NCBI GenBank assembly: GCA_051652765.1
Contig: JBOFUV010000102.1
Coordinates: forward strand, 1-64,000
Length of the DNA: 64,000 bases
Direction of reading: 5' to 3'
Origin: Microcoleaceae cyanobacterium
Lineage (GTDB): Bacteria > Cyanobacteriota > Cyanobacteriia > Cyanobacteriales > Microcoleaceae
The notes beneath the pieces were generated by a model. That model was given only the letters and a program-made list of their open reading frames with translations. It ran no database searches and had not been told where the DNA came from. Of the stretch, positions 9,497-18,873 are shown in pieces. The first letter of the stretch is position 1. Each line of letters begins with the position of its first letter. Both the position numbers and the translations under genes were made by a program.

Positions 9497-10603
9497 ATGA
9501 ATACTCAGGGTGACGTTGTTATAATTGGTGGTGGACTCATTGGATTGTCCATAGCGCTTGAACTGAAACTGCGGGGGGCAACGGTCACTGTTCTCAGTCG
9601 CGATTTTCAAGAGGCAGCGGCTCATGCAGCAGCAGGAATGTTAGCTCCCCAAGCAGAAGCAATTCAACAGGGTTCCCTGTTAGAACTTGCTCTACGCAGC
9701 CGTGCCCTATATCAGAATTGGATTAGGAAGCTAGAAGAGATTACAGGACTAGACACAGGCTACTGGCCCTGTGGAATTTTAGCACCCATTTATCAACAGC
9801 CTCAGTCAACGGTTGGATCTCAATCTGCAGCGGCTCCAGCCTATTGGTTGGAGCGGGAGTCCCTGGATCAGCATCAACCTGGTTTGGGGTCGGAGGTGGT
9901 CGGGGGATGGTGGTTTCCTCTGGATGCTCAAGTAGACAATCGCCGGGGATTGGCACGAGCTTTGCAAAGTGCGGCTCAGGAACTGGGGGTGAATCTATGG
10001 GAAGGCACGGAGGTTCAGAGTCTCGTAACTGACCATTCCTCAGTAGTCCTAGGGCTGAAGACCAATCGAGGGGAAGTGAGAGGCTCGCACTATATTCTGG
10101 CAACTGGCGCATGGTCGGCCCAGGTATTGCCGCAGATTCCTGTTTATCCGATCAAGGGACAAATGGTGTCTGTTAGGGTTCCGCCAGCTTTTGCCCAGTT
10201 GCCTCTCAAGCAGGTTCTGTTTGGCCAAGAAATTTATATTGTTCCCCGTCAAGATGGACTGATCGTGATTGGAGCAACGGTTGAACAGGTCAACTTTGAT
10301 CCAGGTTTAACTCCTGAGGGAATTCAAGGATTATTATCACGGGCAATTCGGCTTTATCCTGAGTTACAGAACTTTCCAATTCAGGAATTTTGGTGGGGAT
10401 TTCGGCCAACAACATCTGATTTGTTGCCGATCCTAGGTCATAGCCCCTTTGAAAATTTAACCTTGGCTGTAGGCCATCATCGGAATGGAATTCTGCTTGC
10501 CCCGATTACCGCGCAACTTATTGCAGATTGGGTGCTCGAGCAAAGGTCAGACCCAATTTTAGACAATTTTTGTTGGGATCGCTTCCCAACCGTTCAAGGA
10601 TAA
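9497..10603 (+). CDS. thiO: Glycine oxidase ThiO
   Basis: GGGLIG, AAAGMLAP, YIVPR, WWGFRP, GHHRNGILLAP. Confidence 0.9.
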   Translation: MNTQGDVVIIGGGLIGLSIALELKLRGATVTVLSRDFQEAAAHAAAGMLAPQAEAIQQGSLLELALRSRALYQNWIRKLEEITGLDTGYWPCGILAPIYQQPQSTVGSQSAAAPAYWLERESLDQHQPGLGSEVVGGWWFPLDAQVDNRRGLARALQSAAQELGVNLWEGTEVQSLVTDHSSVVLGLKTNRGEVRGSHYILATGAWSAQVLPQIPVYPIKGQMVSVRVPPAFAQLPLKQVLFGQEIYIVPRQDGLIVIGATVEQVNFDPGLTPEGIQGLLSRAIRLYPELQNFPIQEFWWGFRPTTSDLLPILGHSPFENLTLAVGHHRNGILLAPITAQLIADWVLEQRSDPILDNFCWDRFPTVQG

Positions 10604-11161
10604 ACCCGAAGCGTTCAGCGCTATAATTTTATGTATATAGTAATTGTATATAGAAATTTGGAGCAGTCAGGGGTTCACCCAACTTGATGTGAATCCTGTC
10701 GGTTGGTGTCGAGTTCATAACGTCCAACATGCTCAAGGGCTTGTCGGATATTGCGTTCTTCTCTCCAACCGACAAAATTTGCACAGGCAAGCCGCTAGCG
10801 ATAGCAACAATTGTGTTTTGGGTTTTCTTTGTTTAAGCGGCAGGTATTGAGTTTCCGTTCCAAAGTTACTGCTTTTAAGCCTAATGCTTTAAGCTTCCTG
10901 TTTTTGGGTTGATGATTTTAGGGATTTCTCCTTACACGTGTCTCATTAAGATCGGCTGAACTAGAAATTTTCCTGTTTTCTGAGTTTAAGGCAGAAGAAT
11001 TAAATAGCAACACTCCAAGACTTCTACAAATTAACCCCAGCGTTATTAACTTTTATAGATCTAAATCGTACTCTGGCAGGGCTAGAGGAACAGAGTAGTT
11101 GTCAAGTCCCTCTCAGGTCAGGGCTTCAAAATTAGAGAAACGTTCTAGCGAAAGGAGAAAA

Positions 11162-11410
11162 ATGTTTATCAGTCGGCAAAAATGGTTCGTCTTGGCCAGC
11201 CTATTATTTCTTTCTATGATCAGTCATGGATATTACCCTCCACTTGTCAAAGCGATCGCCCTTCCTACAAATTCTGAACAGATACCCATCGCTGCACCCT
11301 CAAGCAGCGTGACGTTGAATGCTGAAAGTCGGGACGCTTTGAGACCTCAAGCTCAAGGTAGACGGGATGCTGGTCGTAGAATCGCTTGCGAAGGGTTTGG
11401 AGTCTGCTGA
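11162..11410 (+). CDS. Small secreted peptide precursor (82 aa), PatX-like layout but without canonical RGSGR
   Basis: SD aaggag 5-6 nt before ATG; signal-peptide-like N-terminus, P/S-rich linker, C-terminal GRRDAGRR then CEGFGVC. Confidence 0.65.
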   Translation: MFISRQKWFVLASLLFLSMISHGYYPPLVKAIALPTNSEQIPIAAPSSSVTLNAESRDALRPQAQGRRDAGRRIACEGFGVC

Positions 11411-11612
11411 ACTCGCTTCAGAGGTTGCTTCAGACGTTACCCCAATCAGGATCAAACCGAGCTTATATTCTCAAGAGGGTTTGGGTGAGTGTAAAGTTCC
11501 GCAGATGGAAATTTCAAGGCTCTGTTGTTTTTGTCTGCAGGTTCCGATCGAAAGGGTTAATGTTCGTTCTTATCAGAGAAAGATGAGTTAATCTAGAGGT
11601 TATCCAGGGATC

Positions 11613-14600
11613 ATGAGGGATCGTGTTATGAGTCTGCCTCCCCAAGATAACGTAGAGATTCATAATCAAACTCAAGTCAATACCCTCGCCAGAACTCTGC
11701 AATTGTCGGCGGGTCAATTCTCATTACTGTTTGCCCGCTGTAACTATGTGAGTCTCCGGCAACAGATTATTGAGCAACTCCAGCACTCCCTCAATGAACC
11801 GTTTAGCCTGCTTTCTCTTGATTCCTCCGTTCACAATCTTTATCGAACCATTGAAATGGAGATGGCTCAGCAACCATCCCTCCCGAATGTTTTAATGGTC
11901 GTTGGTTTTGAGGGGATCGCTGCGATTGATGAAGTTTTAGACTCGGCCAACCGTAGTCGAGAGGCTTTCCTCAATCTCCCGTTCCCAATTGTCTTGTGGA
12001 TCAATGACAAGCTCTGGCGCAAGCTGAATCGTCAGGCACCTGACTTCACCAGTTGGGCGACAACGACAGAGTTTCTCCAGAGTTCTGCGTCACTCCTCTA
12101 TTTCTTGCAGGACAGAGCCCAACAGGTTGTCACTACGGCCCTGAAAGTCGGTGCCAGTCAATTTATTCCCAACGCGAAAATTTTGGGAGTCGATGCGGCG
12201 ACTGAACTGCAAGCTGCCTATCAGGATTTGGCAACTCGTGATGTTACGCTTCAACCCTTCCTAGAAGCGAGTTTAAGATTTGTTTTAGGTCGGCATTATT
12301 ATGCTTACCAAGAGATAACTGAAGCGTTAGAGCAGTATCAACTCAGTTTGAAATTTTGGGAAACCAGTGAACGCGATCGCAAACGAATTAGTCCCAAAAC
12401 CGTCCTCAATCATAACGCTCAAAATTCCAATTCTCACAGCTCAAACCGACTGAGTTCAAGTCTCAGTTCTGATGCTGCCAGTCTCAATCTCCTCTCTCAA
12501 GCCACACCCTTAGAATGGCAGGGTTTGCTATTGTTTCACCTTGGGCTGTGTTACATCTATCTTGCGGAACAACATCTCCAATATAGCGGTCAATCAGACT
12601 GGGAGAAAGCAAAGGTGCATTTGCAGGGTTGTATCAACCGATTTGAAACTGCAAATCGTCAGGATTTGGTAGCAAAATTCATCAGCAAACTAGGTGAAGT
12701 CCTCCGTCAATTGAAGCGATGGAATGAACTCTGGCAACTTGCACTTCGTTCCCAGAAACTTCGTCATCAACTTTCAGACGCAGATCCAATTCAAATTGCT
12801 CAGGACTACGGATTCTTGGCGGAGGTTGCGCTCCATCGAGGAGCCTTTGAAAACGCAAAAGAACTTGCGATTGTTGCCTTAGAAAACTTGGATCAAGATT
12901 CGACTGACAACTCCAATGATCCGATTAGAAATCAGCACCGAGGGTTGTATTTATTTATTCTGGCTCAATCCCTAGAACATCTTGGCGAGCCCTGGGAAGC
13001 CATTGACAAGCTTGAAGTTGCCTATCGAGACACTAATGCTAAGTATGATCCAAGGTTGTATCTAAAAATCCTAGATCACCTCAACCGATTGTATTTTAAA
13101 TTGGGTGAATATCGGGAAGCATTTGAAATCAAAAAAGAGTATCGGACAAAGTCCAGTACGTTTGGCTACACGGCTTTTATTGGTGCTGGACGGTTACGCT
13201 CTCGGGAACGGATCGTTGATCCCATTTTGGGGACGATTTCACTCAATGAAAACTCAACATTTACGGATGAAATCCAGGCATCAGGTCGAGAAGAAGCCAT
13301 TAATCGCTTGCTGCAACGAATGGCGATCGCGCAGCACAAACTGACTGTTATCTACGGGCAGTCTGGAGTTGGAAAAAGTTCGATTTTGAGAGCTGGATTA
13401 GTTCCAGCCCTAAAGCGTTATCGGGTGGAAACTCGTCAACTGATTCCAATCATTGTCAGAACCTATAATGCTTATATCAATGAGCTAGATCAAAAACTCT
13501 CCTTATCCACAAACAAAAAAGGTCAATCCGAACTCCAGGTTGATGACACCAACTTGACCTTGGAACTTTCAAATAGTAACGCTGAGCAGTTTCAAGAAGT
13601 CTTGAGCAGCGTGATTGAAAAGCTCAAAAAAAATACGGATAATAATAAAATTACTGTTCTAATCTTCGATCAATTTGAAGAATTTTTCTTTGTCTATAAA
13701 ACCAGAGCCGGACGGCAGACTTTCTTCGAGACTTTGCGGGATTTTTTAGATCTTCCCTTTGTCAAAGTAATTATTTCTCTCCGAGAAGACTATATCCACT
13801 ATCTTTTAGAATGCGTTCGGTTTACCTACATTGAGGTAATCAATAATGACATTCTGAACAAAGATATTTTGTTCTACCTGGGGAATCTGACCCAAGCGGA
13901 AGCCTCTAATGTGATCAAGCGGTTGACCGATCAGTCTCACTTTTATTTGGAAGATGCCCTAGTTCAGGCATTGGTTGAGGATCTATCCGATGATTTTGAT
14001 GAGGTTCGACCGATTGAACTGCAAGTTGTGGGGTCACAAATCCAGGCGGAAGCGATTACAACCCTGGCCGAGTATCAACAAAAAGGCCCGAAGAAAAAGT
14101 TGGTTGAACGGTTTCTGGAACAAGTCGTTCATGATTGTGGCCCCGAAAATGAACGGGCTGCCCGTTCGATTTTATATCTGCTCACCGATGAAAATAACAC
14201 CCGACCCCTCAAAACACGGAATGAGTTGGCGGAAGAATTGAGAGATGAGTTAAGTCAAAATTCCATCGATGAACAGTTGGATTTAGTCCTTTATATTCTG
14301 GAAAAATCCGGGTTGGTCTCCCGTGAAATTGGTATTGGAGCTAGCTTTTATCAACTGGTTCACGACTATTTAGCAGACTTTATCCGCCAGCAACATCGTT
14401 CTGATCGAGATGCAGAATTTCAACAAATTGTTCAGGAAAAAAATGTTTATGCCAAACTAGCTCTCGAACGGGAAAAGCTAGCCCTAGAAACGGAGAGAAG
14501 ACGGCGAGCTGAGCAGCGGAAGCGTCGATCTGAGCGATTTTTGGGTCTGTTGTTTGGCCTGTTTCTGGTCAGTCTAGCCGGACTTGGATTCTGGCTGACC

Positions 14601-16826
14601 CGGAAGGAAGGAGCAGCCAGAATCAGTGCGATTGAAGCAACAACGGAAGCCCTGTTGGTCTCCGGTCGCAATAATCAACTCGGGGTTTTACAAGCCAGTT
14701 TGAACACCGGAAAAAGTATTCAAACCACTCGAGCTTCGGCTGACATTCAAACGGAGGTTGCCCTGGGACTAAGACCCACGATTACTAATATTCAAGAGCG
14801 CAATCGCCTGGAAGGCCATGAAAGCGGGGTTTTGGGAGTTGTCTACAGTCCTGATGGCACGGTAATTGCTACCGCCAGTGCTGACAGAACAGTGAAAATT
14901 TGGTCAAGTCAAGGCAATCTCTTCTCCACCCTGAACCATGATGCCAGCGTCGTTGATGTCAGCATCAGCGACGCTGGCGTGATTGCCACGGTCACCCTTG
15001 ACCTCGTCAATCCAGACCAAAATCGCGTTCAACTTTGGCAGATCAACGGGGAAAAAATTGTCCATGCGCCGATCAGTCATGGCGGCGCGGCGATCGCCAG
15101 TATTAGCTTTAGCCCTGACGGGAAAATGCTTGCTTCTGGAAGTTGGGATAAAACTATTAAATTGTGGACACTAGACGGAGCCCTGGTTCGAACCCTAGCT
15201 GGACATCAAGGTCGCGTCCAGGATGTGGAATTTAGCCCCGACGGAAAAACCCTCGCCTCAGGGAGTTGGGATACAACTATTAAATTGTGGGCCCTAGAAG
15301 GCACTGTCCTGAAAACATTGAGAGGTCACTGTGAATCCTTGAAATTGAATTCCGGTGAGTCCCAAGAATGCATTCGCCATATCAGTTTCAGTCCCGATGG
15401 CAAACGGCTCGTCTCAGCCAGTAGCGATCGCACCTTAAAAATCTGGGATCTGGAGAGCGGTCGAGTCTTAGGGGCCTTGGAGGGACACAACGAGGCAGTC
15501 TTGAGTACCAGCTTCAGCCCTGATGGTCTCACCATTGCCAGTAGTAGCAGAGACCGCACGGTTAAACTTTGGAATGCTTTAAATGGAACCTTACTCCAAA
15601 CTTTCTCAGGTCACCAAAGTGATGTCTGGGCTGTGGTGTTCAATCCAGAGGGTCGAATGATGATCTCTGCCAGTGCAGATAAGACCGCCAGAATCTGGGA
15701 CTACAATCGGAATCCCGTTAACGACCGATTGTTGTATGGTCATACCGCAGCCGTTTGGAACGTTGGGTTCAGTCCTGATAGTCAGCTCACGGCGACAGCA
15801 AGCGATGACAACACGGTACGACTCTGGGATGTCGCTCTCGGAAAACCAGCCCTCGGCCTTGGGGGAAAACCTGTGCTGTTGCAACATAACGATGACGTGA
15901 GCGGGGTCAGTTTTAGTCCTGATGGCCAAACCATTGCCACCACCAGTTACGACCAGACCGTAAAACTTTGGCGGCTCAACGGTCAACTGGTGCGATCGCT
16001 GGATAACGACAATGATGTTGTTTCTGCCCTGAGCTTTAGCCCAGATGGCAAAACCTTGGCCTCAGCCAGTCAGACGGTTAACCTGTGGACACTAGCAGGA
16101 AAACGCTTGGACACCCTTGGCCTGAACAAGCCCGCTTGGGACATAGAGTTCAATCTCCTAGGCAATCAGATTGCCGTTGGGACTAGTGACGATAGCGGCA
16201 CTGACACTGAAGTTGAGCTTTGGGAAAACCAGAACGGACGCTGGCAGCGCACCCTGAGCCTAACCCCTGAACTGATCGTTCAGAGAAACTCATCGTTCCG
16301 GAAATCTCCTAATCCCCCCCTATCCTCCTCAAGCGCCGAAATTAATGCTTTTAGCTACCCGCCCCAGGCAGATCAACTCGCCCTAGCGATTAGTAGAGAG
16401 GTTCGGTTCTGGAGTTCAACTAAAGGTGGCTCTTGCCCCATCAGTCATAGTGCCCAAGTCGAAAGTCTGAGCTTTTCTCCCAGGGTTCTACCCTCAGGAG
16501 ATTACCTGCTCGTGACCGCCAGCCAAGACAAACAGGTACGGTTTTGGCACGTTAGTGAAGCCCAGCTTTGGCCAGAGTCCCAGACCTGTTCAACCGTTGA
16601 GCCCTTCTATGCCATTAACCAAGATGCCATTGTCAACCATGTTCATTTCAGTCCCAATGGGGAGACCTTATCGATCGCCCAGGATAATGGTGTTGTGACT
16701 CTGTGGAGCATGAAAGGCTTTGAACTCGATTATCAAATTGAGCAAAGCTGTGAGTGGTTGACAGACTATCTGAACACCAATGTCAATTTGACACCAGAAA
16801 GCCGTGCCCTTTGCTCAACAAAATGA
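11613..16826 (+). CDS. Large signalling protein: degenerate NTPase-like N-domain + TPR-like helices + STAND (nSTAND1-type) NTPase + coiled coil + TM + WD40 repeats
   Basis: Walker A GQSGVGKSS, Walker B LIFDQFEEFF, SLREDY, VRPIELQVVG, YQLVHDYL; hydrophobic FLGLLFGLFLVSLAGLGFWL; more than 10 GH...FSPDG...W repeats. Confidence 0.9.
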   Translation: MRDRVMSLPPQDNVEIHNQTQVNTLARTLQLSAGQFSLLFARCNYVSLRQQIIEQLQHSLNEPFSLLSLDSSVHNLYRTIEMEMAQQPSLPNVLMVVGFEGIAAIDEVLDSANRSREAFLNLPFPIVLWINDKLWRKLNRQAPDFTSWATTTEFLQSSASLLYFLQDRAQQVVTTALKVGASQFIPNAKILGVDAATELQAAYQDLATRDVTLQPFLEASLRFVLGRHYYAYQEITEALEQYQLSLKFWETSERDRKRISPKTVLNHNAQNSNSHSSNRLSSSLSSDAASLNLLSQATPLEWQGLLLFHLGLCYIYLAEQHLQYSGQSDWEKAKVHLQGCINRFETANRQDLVAKFISKLGEVLRQLKRWNELWQLALRSQKLRHQLSDADPIQIAQDYGFLAEVALHRGAFENAKELAIVALENLDQDSTDNSNDPIRNQHRGLYLFILAQSLEHLGEPWEAIDKLEVAYRDTNAKYDPRLYLKILDHLNRLYFKLGEYREAFEIKKEYRTKSSTFGYTAFIGAGRLRSRERIVDPILGTISLNENSTFTDEIQASGREEAINRLLQRMAIAQHKLTVIYGQSGVGKSSILRAGLVPALKRYRVETRQLIPIIVRTYNAYINELDQKLSLSTNKKGQSELQVDDTNLTLELSNSNAEQFQEVLSSVIEKLKKNTDNNKITVLIFDQFEEFFFVYKTRAGRQTFFETLRDFLDLPFVKVIISLREDYIHYLLECVRFTYIEVINNDILNKDILFYLGNLTQAEASNVIKRLTDQSHFYLEDALVQALVEDLSDDFDEVRPIELQVVGSQIQAEAITTLAEYQQKGPKKKLVERFLEQVVHDCGPENERAARSILYLLTDENNTRPLKTRNELAEELRDELSQNSIDEQLDLVLYILEKSGLVSREIGIGASFYQLVHDYLADFIRQQHRSDRDAEFQQIVQEKNVYAKLALEREKLALETERRRRAEQRKRRSERFLGLLFGLFLVSLAGLGFWLTRKEGAARISAIEATTEALLVSGRNNQLGVLQASLNTGKSIQTTRASADIQTEVALGLRPTITNIQERNRLEGHESGVLGVVYSPDGTVIATASADRTVKIWSSQGNLFSTLNHDASVVDVSISDAGVIATVTLDLVNPDQNRVQLWQINGEKIVHAPISHGGAAIASISFSPDGKMLASGSWDKTIKLWTLDGALVRTLAGHQGRVQDVEFSPDGKTLASGSWDTTIKLWALEGTVLKTLRGHCESLKLNSGESQECIRHISFSPDGKRLVSASSDRTLKIWDLESGRVLGALEGHNEAVLSTSFSPDGLTIASSSRDRTVKLWNALNGTLLQTFSGHQSDVWAVVFNPEGRMMISASADKTARIWDYNRNPVNDRLLYGHTAAVWNVGFSPDSQLTATASDDNTVRLWDVALGKPALGLGGKPVLLQHNDDVSGVSFSPDGQTIATTSYDQTVKLWRLNGQLVRSLDNDNDVVSALSFSPDGKTLASASQTVNLWTLAGKRLDTLGLNKPAWDIEFNLLGNQIAVGTSDDSGTDTEVELWENQNGRWQRTLSLTPELIVQRNSSFRKSPNPPLSSSSAEINAFSYPPQADQLALAISREVRFWSSTKGGSCPISHSAQVESLSFSPRVLPSGDYLLVTASQDKQVRFWHVSEAQLWPESQTCSTVEPFYAINQDAIVNHVHFSPNGETLSIAQDNGVVTLWSMKGFELDYQIEQSCEWLTDYLNTNVNLTPESRALCSTK

Positions 16827-17010: not shown

Positions 17011-17661
17011 ATGCCCAAAGCTGTTAACGATGCCCACGTTCAATGTGCCCACGGTCGTCACGGAATTGCCGATAAAGCAGAGCAGATTCTGAATGGCGCA
17101 ATCCCCGAATTTCTAAAACACGGTTATTCCTGTACCAGCATGGATCGGATTGCCAAGGCGGCAGGGGTCTCCAAACAAACCCTATACAGCCATTTCTTAG
17201 ACAAAGATGGCCTCTTCACAGCCCTGGTTGAACGCATTGCCTGTGAGAAGTTTCAGATGGTTTGGTCTCATCCTCTCGAAGGACAACCCAGCCAAGTGTT
17301 GCGAGAGCTGGCCAAGCGTATCCTGATGGAAAACATTGACGATGAAGACTACTTGGGATTTTGTCGATTAATTATCGCGGAATCCGGTAAGCGGCCCGAT
17401 CTAGCTCATGTATTTTTAAAAAATTTAGTCCAGCCTGCAACAGTCATCCTGACTCAATACCTGCGAGATTGTCCTGAACTAAGGATCTCTGACCCCGAAG
17501 CAGCAGCTCGAATTTTTGTTGGAGCCCTGATTCATTTCATTCTGATTCAACGGGGACTCCATGGAGAGACCCTGATGCCAATGGATGCCAATCGATTGGT
17601 GGATACCCTAGTGCAGATGATTGCAGGTTCTGGAAAAACCCCTGAATTGCAGCTACAGTAA
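17011..17661 (+). CDS. TetR/AcrR family transcriptional regulator
   Basis: GYSCTSMDRIAKAAGVSKQTLYSHF HTH. Confidence 0.92.
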   Translation: MPKAVNDAHVQCAHGRHGIADKAEQILNGAIPEFLKHGYSCTSMDRIAKAAGVSKQTLYSHFLDKDGLFTALVERIACEKFQMVWSHPLEGQPSQVLRELAKRILMENIDDEDYLGFCRLIIAESGKRPDLAHVFLKNLVQPATVILTQYLRDCPELRISDPEAAARIFVGALIHFILIQRGLHGETLMPMDANRLVDTLVQMIAGSGKTPELQLQ

Positions 17662-17730
17662 TAATGGCGTTTTGAAACCAGAACGCTTTGAGACTCTAAC
17701 TTCCATGCCATCGCTTCACATCTCACTGCT

Positions 17731-18873
17731 ATGTATGCTCCTCCATTTGCTTTGAACACCGGCATTGCCATGACCCTCTATGCTGGCTTGAAAGCTAGCC
17801 AAACCTGGGAAAGCACCCTCAGGGAGCCAGAGCCTGCCTACAGTGAACATATTTTTTTAGGGGCTGGGAACACCCCGATTTTTGGGATTGTTGCCATTCC
17901 ACCCAATCCTCGAGGAACCCTGGTTGGCACCTATGGGATCACGGGGGATTTGGACAATCAGTGGTTCCTCAGGGTCTTAGGACGTAAAGCCTTTGCTCGA
18001 GGCTATGCTGTGGTTCTATTTGATTGGCGAGCCCATGGCAAAACCGCAGAACTCTCTCCTACTCTAACTTCTGATGGGTTGTATGAAGGTCAGGACTTTG
18101 TGCATATTGCGGCTCAAGCTAAGTCCTTGGGATGTCCGGCTCCATTTTGGTTTACGGGATTTTCCCTAGGAGGTCAGTTGGCCCTTTGGGGGGTTCAGGC
18201 AGCCCAAACCCTGGCACAGTGGGGCCAAGGGTTAGATCCCGCCTTAAACCCGACCTTAAACATTACAGAACCCGAATTAGCAGGAGGAGCTGTCATTTGT
18301 CCGAGCTTGGACTCTACTCGCTCCCTACGTTATCTGGTCAAGCATCCTGTGGGCAAGCATCTGGAACGATCGATCGCCCGCACCCTCAAAAAATTAGCCT
18401 ATCGAATTGCTGCGTTTCATCCGGGAGCCCTTGACCTGAAAGCGATTGAACGGGTCAATACGATCTGGGATTTTGACCAAGAATTAATCATTTCAACCCT
18501 AGGGTTTGCCACTGTTGAAGACTATTACGGGGCTAGCAGTCCCCTACCGTTGCTCCCCCACCTGCAAAAACCAACGCTGATTCTCTACGCGGCAGATGAT
18601 CCTTTGTTCGATCCGGCTGTGATACCTGACTTGCAAGCAGCGGCCCAAGGGAACCCTAGAATTGATTTGAGGCTGACGGCTCAGGGTGGCCATGTTGGCT
18701 ATATCAGCAGCCAAGCTTGCCAACGTCAAATGCAAGATCCCGACTGTTGGTGGGCTTGGAACCGGGTTCTGGAGTGGTGCGATCGCCCTCATGATTCCCT
18801 TCAAAAGGACTCTTCAGACTCATCCAAGCTGGAATCAGGAATTATTCAACTTTCCCCTGTAATTAATAGTTAA
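17731..18873 (+). CDS. YheT-like alpha/beta hydrolase
   Basis: GFSLGG nucleophile, ADDP acid, GGHVG histidine. Confidence 0.88.
   Translation: MYAPPFALNTGIAMTLYAGLKASQTWESTLREPEPAYSEHIFLGAGNTPIFGIVAIPPNPRGTLVGTYGITGDLDNQWFLRVLGRKAFARGYAVVLFDWRAHGKTAELSPTLTSDGLYEGQDFVHIAAQAKSLGCPAPFWFTGFSLGGQLALWGVQAAQTLAQWGQGLDPALNPTLNITEPELAGGAVICPSLDSTRSLRYLVKHPVGKHLERSIARTLKKLAYRIAAFHPGALDLKAIERVNTIWDFDQELIISTLGFATVEDYYGASSPLPLLPHLQKPTLILYAADDPLFDPAVIPDLQAAAQGNPRIDLRLTAQGGHVGYISSQACQRQMQDPDCWWAWNRVLEWCDRPHDSLQKDSSDSSKLESGIIQLSPVINS

Follow-up and report, generated by a model that had tools for sequence, protein, structure and literature searches.

In the genome of a Microcoleaceae cyanobacterium (GenBank assembly GCA_051652765.1), a gene for an 82-residue protein lies just upstream of a gene for a 1737-residue STAND-WD40 protein, raising the question of whether the small protein is a secreted ligand and the large one its membrane receptor. 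Both open reading frames (ORFs) are in the window, i.e. the 64,000-nucleotide stretch analysed (positions 1 to 64,000, forward strand, of contig JBOFUV010000102.1). An earlier note, made from the letters of the window, had proposed such a pair. The two ORFs it described, their common orientation, the Shine-Dalgarno-like site ahead of the small ORF (start codon ATG 11162) and their spacing of about 200 bp were confirmed, the gap being 202 nucleotides (Table 1). Comparison of related genomes gave a new result, namely a family of small proteins, here called the peptide, and its linkage to the large protein, here called the receptor, which was found in both directions of search and is restricted to receptors with a predicted transmembrane (TM) segment.

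The small ORF is more than a chance occurrence. A fixed shape pattern (hydrophobic start, basic residue, terminal Cys loop) was matched by 8 ORFs in the whole genome (5.04 Mb) and, as a control, a matching ORF was found within 1.5 kb upstream of 2 of the 1773 ORFs of at least 300 residues, one of the two being the receptor gene. A search with the single peptide sequence gave no significant relative among 60 other genomes, and a first profile of 15 rows found none that was credible among 300 class-level genomes; the family was recovered only via synteny and then with a profile focused on the core. The DNA upstream of receptor homologs contained recurrent ORFs of 60–140 residues that begin with a hydrophobic stretch and end in a Cys loop, and purine-rich sites of the GGAG/GAGG type were present at most of the 14 homolog starts displayed. 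Over the full length, nonsynonymous differences were proportionally fewer than synonymous ones (pN < pS) in 49 of 50 pairs of close homologs, a set in which the window's own gene has no close partner. The same was true of the last 15 residues, the most constrained part, in 48 pairs, with two ties at zero. As judged by these substitution patterns, the small gene is a constrained protein-coding gene under purifying selection that belongs to a family without annotation. The peptide has no significant match in Pfam or NCBIfam and no PADLOC model, and no NCBIfam model or paper could be tied to 'Osc7112_2153 family protein', the name of the Atlas cluster that gave a lead (0.86). Its N-terminus reaches a hydropathy of 2.62 across 11 residues, and a hydrophobic N-terminus recurs in the homologs.

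C76 and C82 are invariant in alignments of 26 and 42 rows, which upholds the possible C-terminal loop of the earlier note, presumably closed by a disulfide. In a set of 111 distinct C-termini from 119 sequences, gathered by profiles biased towards the loop, its length is five residues in 102 and six in 9, and 93 match C-x3-G-x-C. Arg or Lys stands shortly ahead of the loop in 108 of the 111, and [AS]-A-[RK] occurs in 47. RDAGR was found in a single C-terminus, that of this locus, RG(S/T)GR also in one and R-x-x-G-R in 6. The conserved element, as seen in these alignments, is the Cys loop and not RDAGR, and the variant PatS/PatX motif read into the sequence by the note does not hold.

The layout of the peptide (signal, spacer, basic C-terminal motif) is nevertheless similar to that of PatX, to which it has an Atlas feature score of 0.82–0.84 (a lead only), and a same-genus homolog has an exact RGSGR ahead of its Cys loop (L022:4554-10482 in G001). 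The receptor gene at that locus has a TAG after ~345 codons, which may be a real break or an assembly error. Of the 301 genomes sampled from the order, 92 were found to have the peptide, after removal of two false hits, mostly in a single copy; hetR is present in 90 of the 92, and only 2 of 122 genomes that gave no hetR hit have the peptide. Some taxonomic families that have hetR and the receptor gave no peptide hit, in a search that misses known members. However, the genome studied here has its hetR on contig C49, and the ORF just upstream, with a signal peptide and HRGSGR (G000:C49:19459-19773), is likely to be patX; patX upstream of hetR is the arrangement described for Leptolyngbya in the available text of PMC11298460. 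Because this ORF matches the described arrangement and RG(S/T)GR is so rare in the family, it is highly improbable that the peptide inhibits HetR in the manner of PatX/PatS through a variant motif, in agreement with the note's view that any signalling would be separate from HetR inhibition. Two further small ORFs with a hydrophobic start and a C-terminal RG(S/T)GR, G000:C28:51157-51339 and G000:C61:41024-41260, may encode extra PatX-like peptides.

Linkage was examined from both sides. The forward set comprised 130 distinct receptor genes, each preceded by 1.4 kb or more of sequence. The peptide gene is ahead of 57 of them, directly in 43 cases and with an intervening gene for a P-loop ATPase of 430–490 residues in 14, while 48 of the remaining genes have the ATPase only and 25 neither. 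For the reverse set, the core profile was run against the 301 genomes of the order, of which 94 matched, nearly always once, giving 98 places; 60 were taken, none of them a training locus, a locus seen before or close kin of these. A real peptide was present in 55 of the 60 regions, and 45 of these lead into a receptor gene, 39 via the ATPase and 6 directly (two with one inserted gene); three have neither partner. The small ORF is thus a conserved gene beside receptor homologs, as the note had supposed.

Unrelated genes that were simply inherited together might give such a picture, and the two genes are indeed apart, with both kept, in several lineages (G002, G007, G016, G027, G031 and G036); the g6 peptide stays near thiO where the receptor has moved (L023, L226), and the g15 peptide stays beside an ArsA-like ATPase gene (L224, L225). 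Neutral synteny is nonetheless very unlikely, since the gene upstream of the peptide belongs to 22 families across 43 loci and the downstream partner is constant. The link has therefore outlasted at least 22 changes of upstream neighbour, as well as gain and loss of the intervening ATPase gene, and each tandem duplicate keeps a peptide: L098, one contig of one genome, has two systems in tandem, whose peptides differ from each other. The pairing of peptide and receptor is well supported genomically.

The domain order given for the receptor in the note stood in its main parts. The nSTAND1 profile PF20703 matches residues 558–920 with 126.7 bits (cut-off 27.1, E-value 2e-36), which places the receptor in the nSTAND1 clade. 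Its Walker A (GQSGVGKSS) and Walker B (VLIFDQFEE) motifs are intact, and G582, G585, G587, K588, S589, D686, Q687 and E689 are invariant across 70 alignment rows. An AlphaFold model of residues 1–935 (predicted local distance difference test, pLDDT, 88; predicted template-modelling score, pTM, 0.83) comprises an α/β domain, a TPR solenoid and an ORC/Cdc6-like STAND module, and the module's fold matches include ORC/Cdc6, Avs3 and the resistosome. A second model, of residues 998–1737 (pLDDT 90), has three helices, ~14 blades and two terminal helices. The best match of the WD40 part in both structure and sequence is the double propeller 2YMU of Nostoc punctiforme, and its blades are divergent by eye. 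Less firm are the TPR repeats, as TPR_12 at residues 358–426 scored under the cut-off, and the first domain (about residues 14–180), which may be a degenerate NTPase, a label whose sole basis is a predicted helix/strand order of the P-loop core. Sequence and profile searches with this domain, nSTAND2 of Pfam included, gave no significant match, its fold not having been searched alone, and its profile did not match the partner ATPase or the nSTAND1 domain significantly. No effector was recognised, as any one Pfam family was common to at most 2 of 30 receptor N-terminal domains. A second start codon, ATG 11628, preceded by GAGGG 8 nucleotides upstream, is the likelier start because a same-genus homolog begins there.

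The TPR solenoid brings to mind the RRNPP receptors (NprR, Rap, PlcR), which are soluble, take linear peptides and have no STAND, TM or WD40 parts. As in those systems, a small precursor, here of predicted export, is encoded beside a TPR-containing receptor, and an NprR structure was among the fold matches, in a generic match. It is improbable that, in the RRNPP or PatX manner, the peptide is exported, trimmed and re-imported so as to bind the cytoplasmic TPR domain or the partner ATPase.

The only receptor segment with a 19-residue hydropathy above 1.5 spans residues 973–998 (peak 2.18 at 977), and 9 Lys or Arg residues lie within the 15 residues preceding it. In the homologs, the segment was sought behind an HDYL anchor, since a plain scan caught a hydrophobic stretch of the winged-helix domain. 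Of 114 proteins, 89 were assessable, 13 without the anchor and 12 that were short or had no upstream DNA being left out; the 13 anchor-less proteins all have a hydrophobic segment of at least 1.76, and 6 of them have a peptide. The peptide stands beside 35 of the 72 receptors with a hydropathy of at least 1.5 and beside none of the 17 below. With a cut-off of 1.6 the figures are 34 of 70 and 1 of 19, and Fisher p values overstate this association because kin are not independent. Of the 39 receptors assessable in the reverse set, 36 reached 1.5 and the other three 1.44–1.48. In 63 of the 72 TM-bearing receptors, Lys and Arg are more frequent ahead of the segment than behind it, a positive-inside pattern. 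The note's hydrophobic segment proved to be conserved and the peptide, at the cut-off of 1.5, to occur only beside receptors that have it. Downstream of the NTPase, TM-bearing receptors have 4.3 Cys per 1000 residues (often just two) and TM-less ones 9.8. C1608 and C1659 co-occur in the same 10 of 42 ectodomain rows, as expected of a gained disulfide. The pair Cys1713/Cys1734 was dropped as a topology marker, TM-less paralogs having both. On an approximate, midpoint-rooted tree, TM-less and peptide-flanked forms each occur in several clades. The predicted topology is N-in/C-out, with the propellers outside. Receptor homologs that end shortly past the TM helix, with no WD40 region, were observed at L174, L175, L185, L187, L205 and L191.

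With this topology, an exported disulfide-loop peptide could bind the outward-facing propellers and gate ATP-dependent STAND assembly, with the partner ATPase as the first relay, a proposal that we regard as evenly balanced between right and wrong. The covariation survey suggested by the note gave it partial support. Across 22 representatives, similarity in the stretch of eight residues that precedes the first Cys follows similarity in the WD40 part when the cytoplasmic part is controlled for (partial r 0.55, permutation p 0.001), with the signal concentrated in receptor residues about 1480–1720; the signal peptide, as a control, gave a partial r of 0.00. Complex prediction with the WD40 region (740 residues) and the last 40 residues of the peptide, run with no control pairs, gave scores of 0.24 and 0.23 against a mark of 0.32, figures that speak neither for nor against binding.

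Several points weigh against binding of the peptide to the propellers. The Cys loop does not track the WD40 part (partial r -0.15). Without the host clade and one other divergent lineage, the distal-propeller signal falls from 0.64 to 0.19 (p 0.11), and because of this drop the covariation amounts to about two concordant divergences of the peptide motif and the distal propeller. The topology itself is predicted. The forward loci were ranked by similarity to this receptor, and some of them also went into the forward profile; the genomes are related, so their counts are not independent. The peptide was found at none of 19 receptor loci outside the order, adjacency is not obligatory (37 of the 72 TM-bearing receptors have no adjacent peptide), and the receptor-bearing genomes G364, G050, G422 and G046 gave no peptide by a profile that misses known members. 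In the reverse set, 7 of the 55 peptides precede the ATPase gene with no receptor within the 2–5 kb examined. Neither a linked effector domain nor a processing peptidase was found at the loci.

Some of these observations would suit a peptide that is a co-regulated output or an envelope accessory, such as a secreted peptide for defence or a signal to some other receptor, and that does not bind the propellers, its gene staying close to the others for the sake of co-expression: linkage and export are then explained without binding, as are the seven peptides that remain with the ATPase alone and the failure of the Cys-loop residues to covary with the WD40 part. Such a role does not easily explain why the peptide is restricted to TM-bearing receptors (35 of 72 against 0 of 17) or why each tandem receptor in L098 has a distinct peptide, and it is considered unlikely.

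The partner ATPase gene usually lies between those of the peptide and the receptor and is absent at this locus; the genome's ATPases of this type adjoin paralogous receptors on contigs C143 and C142. In all, four receptor paralogs were noted (G000:C142, C143, C128 and C119), two with the ATPase upstream, two truncated and none with a peptide. Scans of three partner ATPases of the family gave P-loop families only, with no TIR or caspase. The order ATPase, TM-less receptor paralog, peptide, TM-bearing receptor recurs in L093, L094, L101, L107 and L117, and may reflect a duplication after which the ATPase remained with the cytoplasmic copy and the peptide with the membrane copy. The peptides of L297, L301, L302, L306 and L316 have an extension of 40–45 residues past the Cys loop that abuts the ATPase start, with no receptor within the DNA examined. 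At L100:1-4331 and L132:450-4661, ATPase-receptor pairs are divergent from genes that we take to be ftsQ-like and ftsZ-like.

A receptor ortholog is present in 101 of 121 genomes of the taxonomic family, mostly as one strong hit, a distribution closer to that of a core gene than to that of a mobile defence gene. Its relatives are found in filamentous cyanobacteria such as Capilliphycus, Limnoraphis, Lyngbya and Planktothrix, and PADLOC gave the receptor only weak, P-loop-centred hits with E-values of 1e-3 or worse.

The locus shares parts with several known systems. As in the nSTAND1 clade (PF20703) described in the accessible text of PMC8195603 and PMC10907252, the NTPase module scores over the Pfam cut-off, the hosts are multicellular bacteria and the C-terminal sensor is variable. 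The members described there have CLec/FGE sensors with effector-associated domains, whereas the present receptor is predicted to combine an N-terminal degenerate α/β domain and TPR repeats with a TM helix and outward-facing WD40 propellers, and has no recognised effector and a linked, predicted secreted peptide. Npun_R6612/WRAP of Nostoc punctiforme (PDB 2YMU) likewise joins STAND to a 14-blade double WD40 propeller and is coupled to a second ATPase gene. In the available description (bioRxiv 10.1101/2022.03.13.484165), the partner is a STAND ATPase with TIR or caspase, the blades are near-identical and neither a TM segment nor a peptide is mentioned; this locus has no ATPase in cis, and the family ATPases scanned lack both domains. 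Two-gene systems of an active and an inactive STAND protein (nSTAND2), for which the part of PMC8195603 at hand proposes hetero-oligomerisation with GT4 or HEPN effectors, also place an active NTPase gene next to a protein with an eroded NTPase module; here, in contrast, the putatively eroded domain forms the N-terminus of a receptor that also has an intact NTPase, and it gave no nSTAND2 Pfam hit.

With PatX-PatP-HetR, as far as the accessible texts describe it (PMC12756182, PMC7761841, PMC11298460), the peptide shares a small Sec-exported precursor (export being predicted here), a basic C-terminal core and hetR-bearing filamentous hosts, and by hydropathy and conservation it has the export signal expected of PatX/PatS. 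It differs in having no RG(S/T)GR, a conserved Cys loop and linkage to a STAND receptor instead of hetR. Avs/bNACHT proteins are also STAND switches with a repeat-domain sensor; in the available account their targets are phage proteins in the cell interior and their N-termini are effectors (PMC13581612), whereas the receptor here has no recognised effector and a TM helix is predicted ahead of its WD40 part, so that by prediction the sensor is not cytoplasmic. A BASS amyloid-signalling pair was considered and rejected on inspection, given that the receptor N-terminus has no Cys-loop motif and the small protein has a predicted signal peptide (definition from the accessible part of bioRxiv 10.1101/2020.01.06.895854). 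In the main texts of the open literature, no description of the peptide family or of a peptide-ATPase-receptor locus was found; the supplementary tables of PMC8195603 and PMC13581612 may list this STAND clade.

Table 1. Positions of the peptide and receptor genes, their parts and their neighbours in the window.
Position	Strand	Feature	Basis
9497..10603	+	ThiO-like flavin adenine dinucleotide (FAD) oxidase, upstream; synteny local only, outside the system	profile and neighbour comparison
11153..11157	+	Shine-Dalgarno-like AGGAG of peptide gene	sequence
11162..11410	+	precursor of Cys-loop peptide family, 82 residues, predicted secreted	pattern, alignments, profiles
11162..11254	+	predicted Sec-type signal peptide: basic n-region, h-region 8–20, putative VKA cleavage site	
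11360..11407	+	core: basic residues, then C76-x5-C82, putative disulfide loop	strongest constraint
11613..16826	+	STAND-WD40 protein, membrane anchor predicted, 1737 residues, probably 1732 from ATG 11628	
11652..12152	+	N-terminal α/β domain, putative degenerate P-loop without Walker A; candidate docking site for partner ATPase	
12195..13160	+	TPR-like helical solenoid	
13284..14372	+	nSTAND1 NTPase (Walker A 13356–13382, Walker B about 13656–13682), helical and winged-helix domains	
14385..14531	+	charged coiled-coil-like linker, basic KRR cluster at end	sequence
14538..14597	+	single predicted TM helix, probably N-in/C-out	hydropathy
14796..16709	+	~14 WD40 blades, two propellers, predicted to lie outside the cytoplasm; clade-specific Cys pair 1608/1659	
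16734..16823	+	helices at C-terminus, containing Cys1713 and Cys1734	invariant in 42/42 rows
17011..17661	+	TetR-family regulator, downstream; synteny local	profile and neighbour comparison

Around the two genes, a promoter and terminator scan was uninformative, as was the intergenic RNA fold (z 0.23), and tblastn against plasmids gave nothing relevant. The TetR regulator and an α/β hydrolase (window 17011-18873) are 3' of the receptor gene in several relatives, including ones in which the peptide gene is relocated. In another genome, L027:1226-9955 (G003) is a cluster of phage-tail/baseplate-like ORFs, presumably resembling a contractile injection locus.

Taken as a ligand and its receptor, the genes would form a three-part envelope-signalling system of hetR-bearing cyanobacteria. 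The small gene would encode a pre-pro-peptide that is exported by Sec, trimmed near the basic site and closed into a disulfide loop of 5–6 residues. The receptor would span the membrane once, with the WD40 propellers outside and the degenerate P-loop, TPR and nSTAND1 parts, as assigned by profiles and models, inside. Binding of the peptide to the propellers, whether it acts as an agonist or keeps the switch off as a self-marker, would control STAND assembly, and the output would most likely pass through the separate ATPase of 430–490 residues, encoded in this genome only beside paralogs. Filament-level coordination, or self or damage sensing, is the most economical guess at the physiological output.

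As far as the available texts describe them, characterised STAND/NLR switches sense ligands inside the cell, and mostly foreign ones. That the present receptor is a transmembrane NLR-like protein with an endogenous, secreted disulfide-loop ligand, signalling inward via STAND assembly and the partner ATPase, is put forward tentatively, as somewhat less than an even chance. The candidate ligand is 10–20 residues long, easily synthesised and mostly single-copy, which makes the question directly testable. The pair also gives a starting point for asking why filamentous cyanobacteria have so many giant STAND-WD40 proteins with no known ligand. If true, a membrane STAND protein with a self-made exported peptide would extend the STAND/NLR class to intercellular signalling and would give bacteria an equivalent of peptide-hormone or self-recognition receptor systems. 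Next to PatX-HetR, cyanobacterial multicellularity would then have a second ancient peptide circuit, in which the codes between peptide and propeller differ from lineage to lineage.

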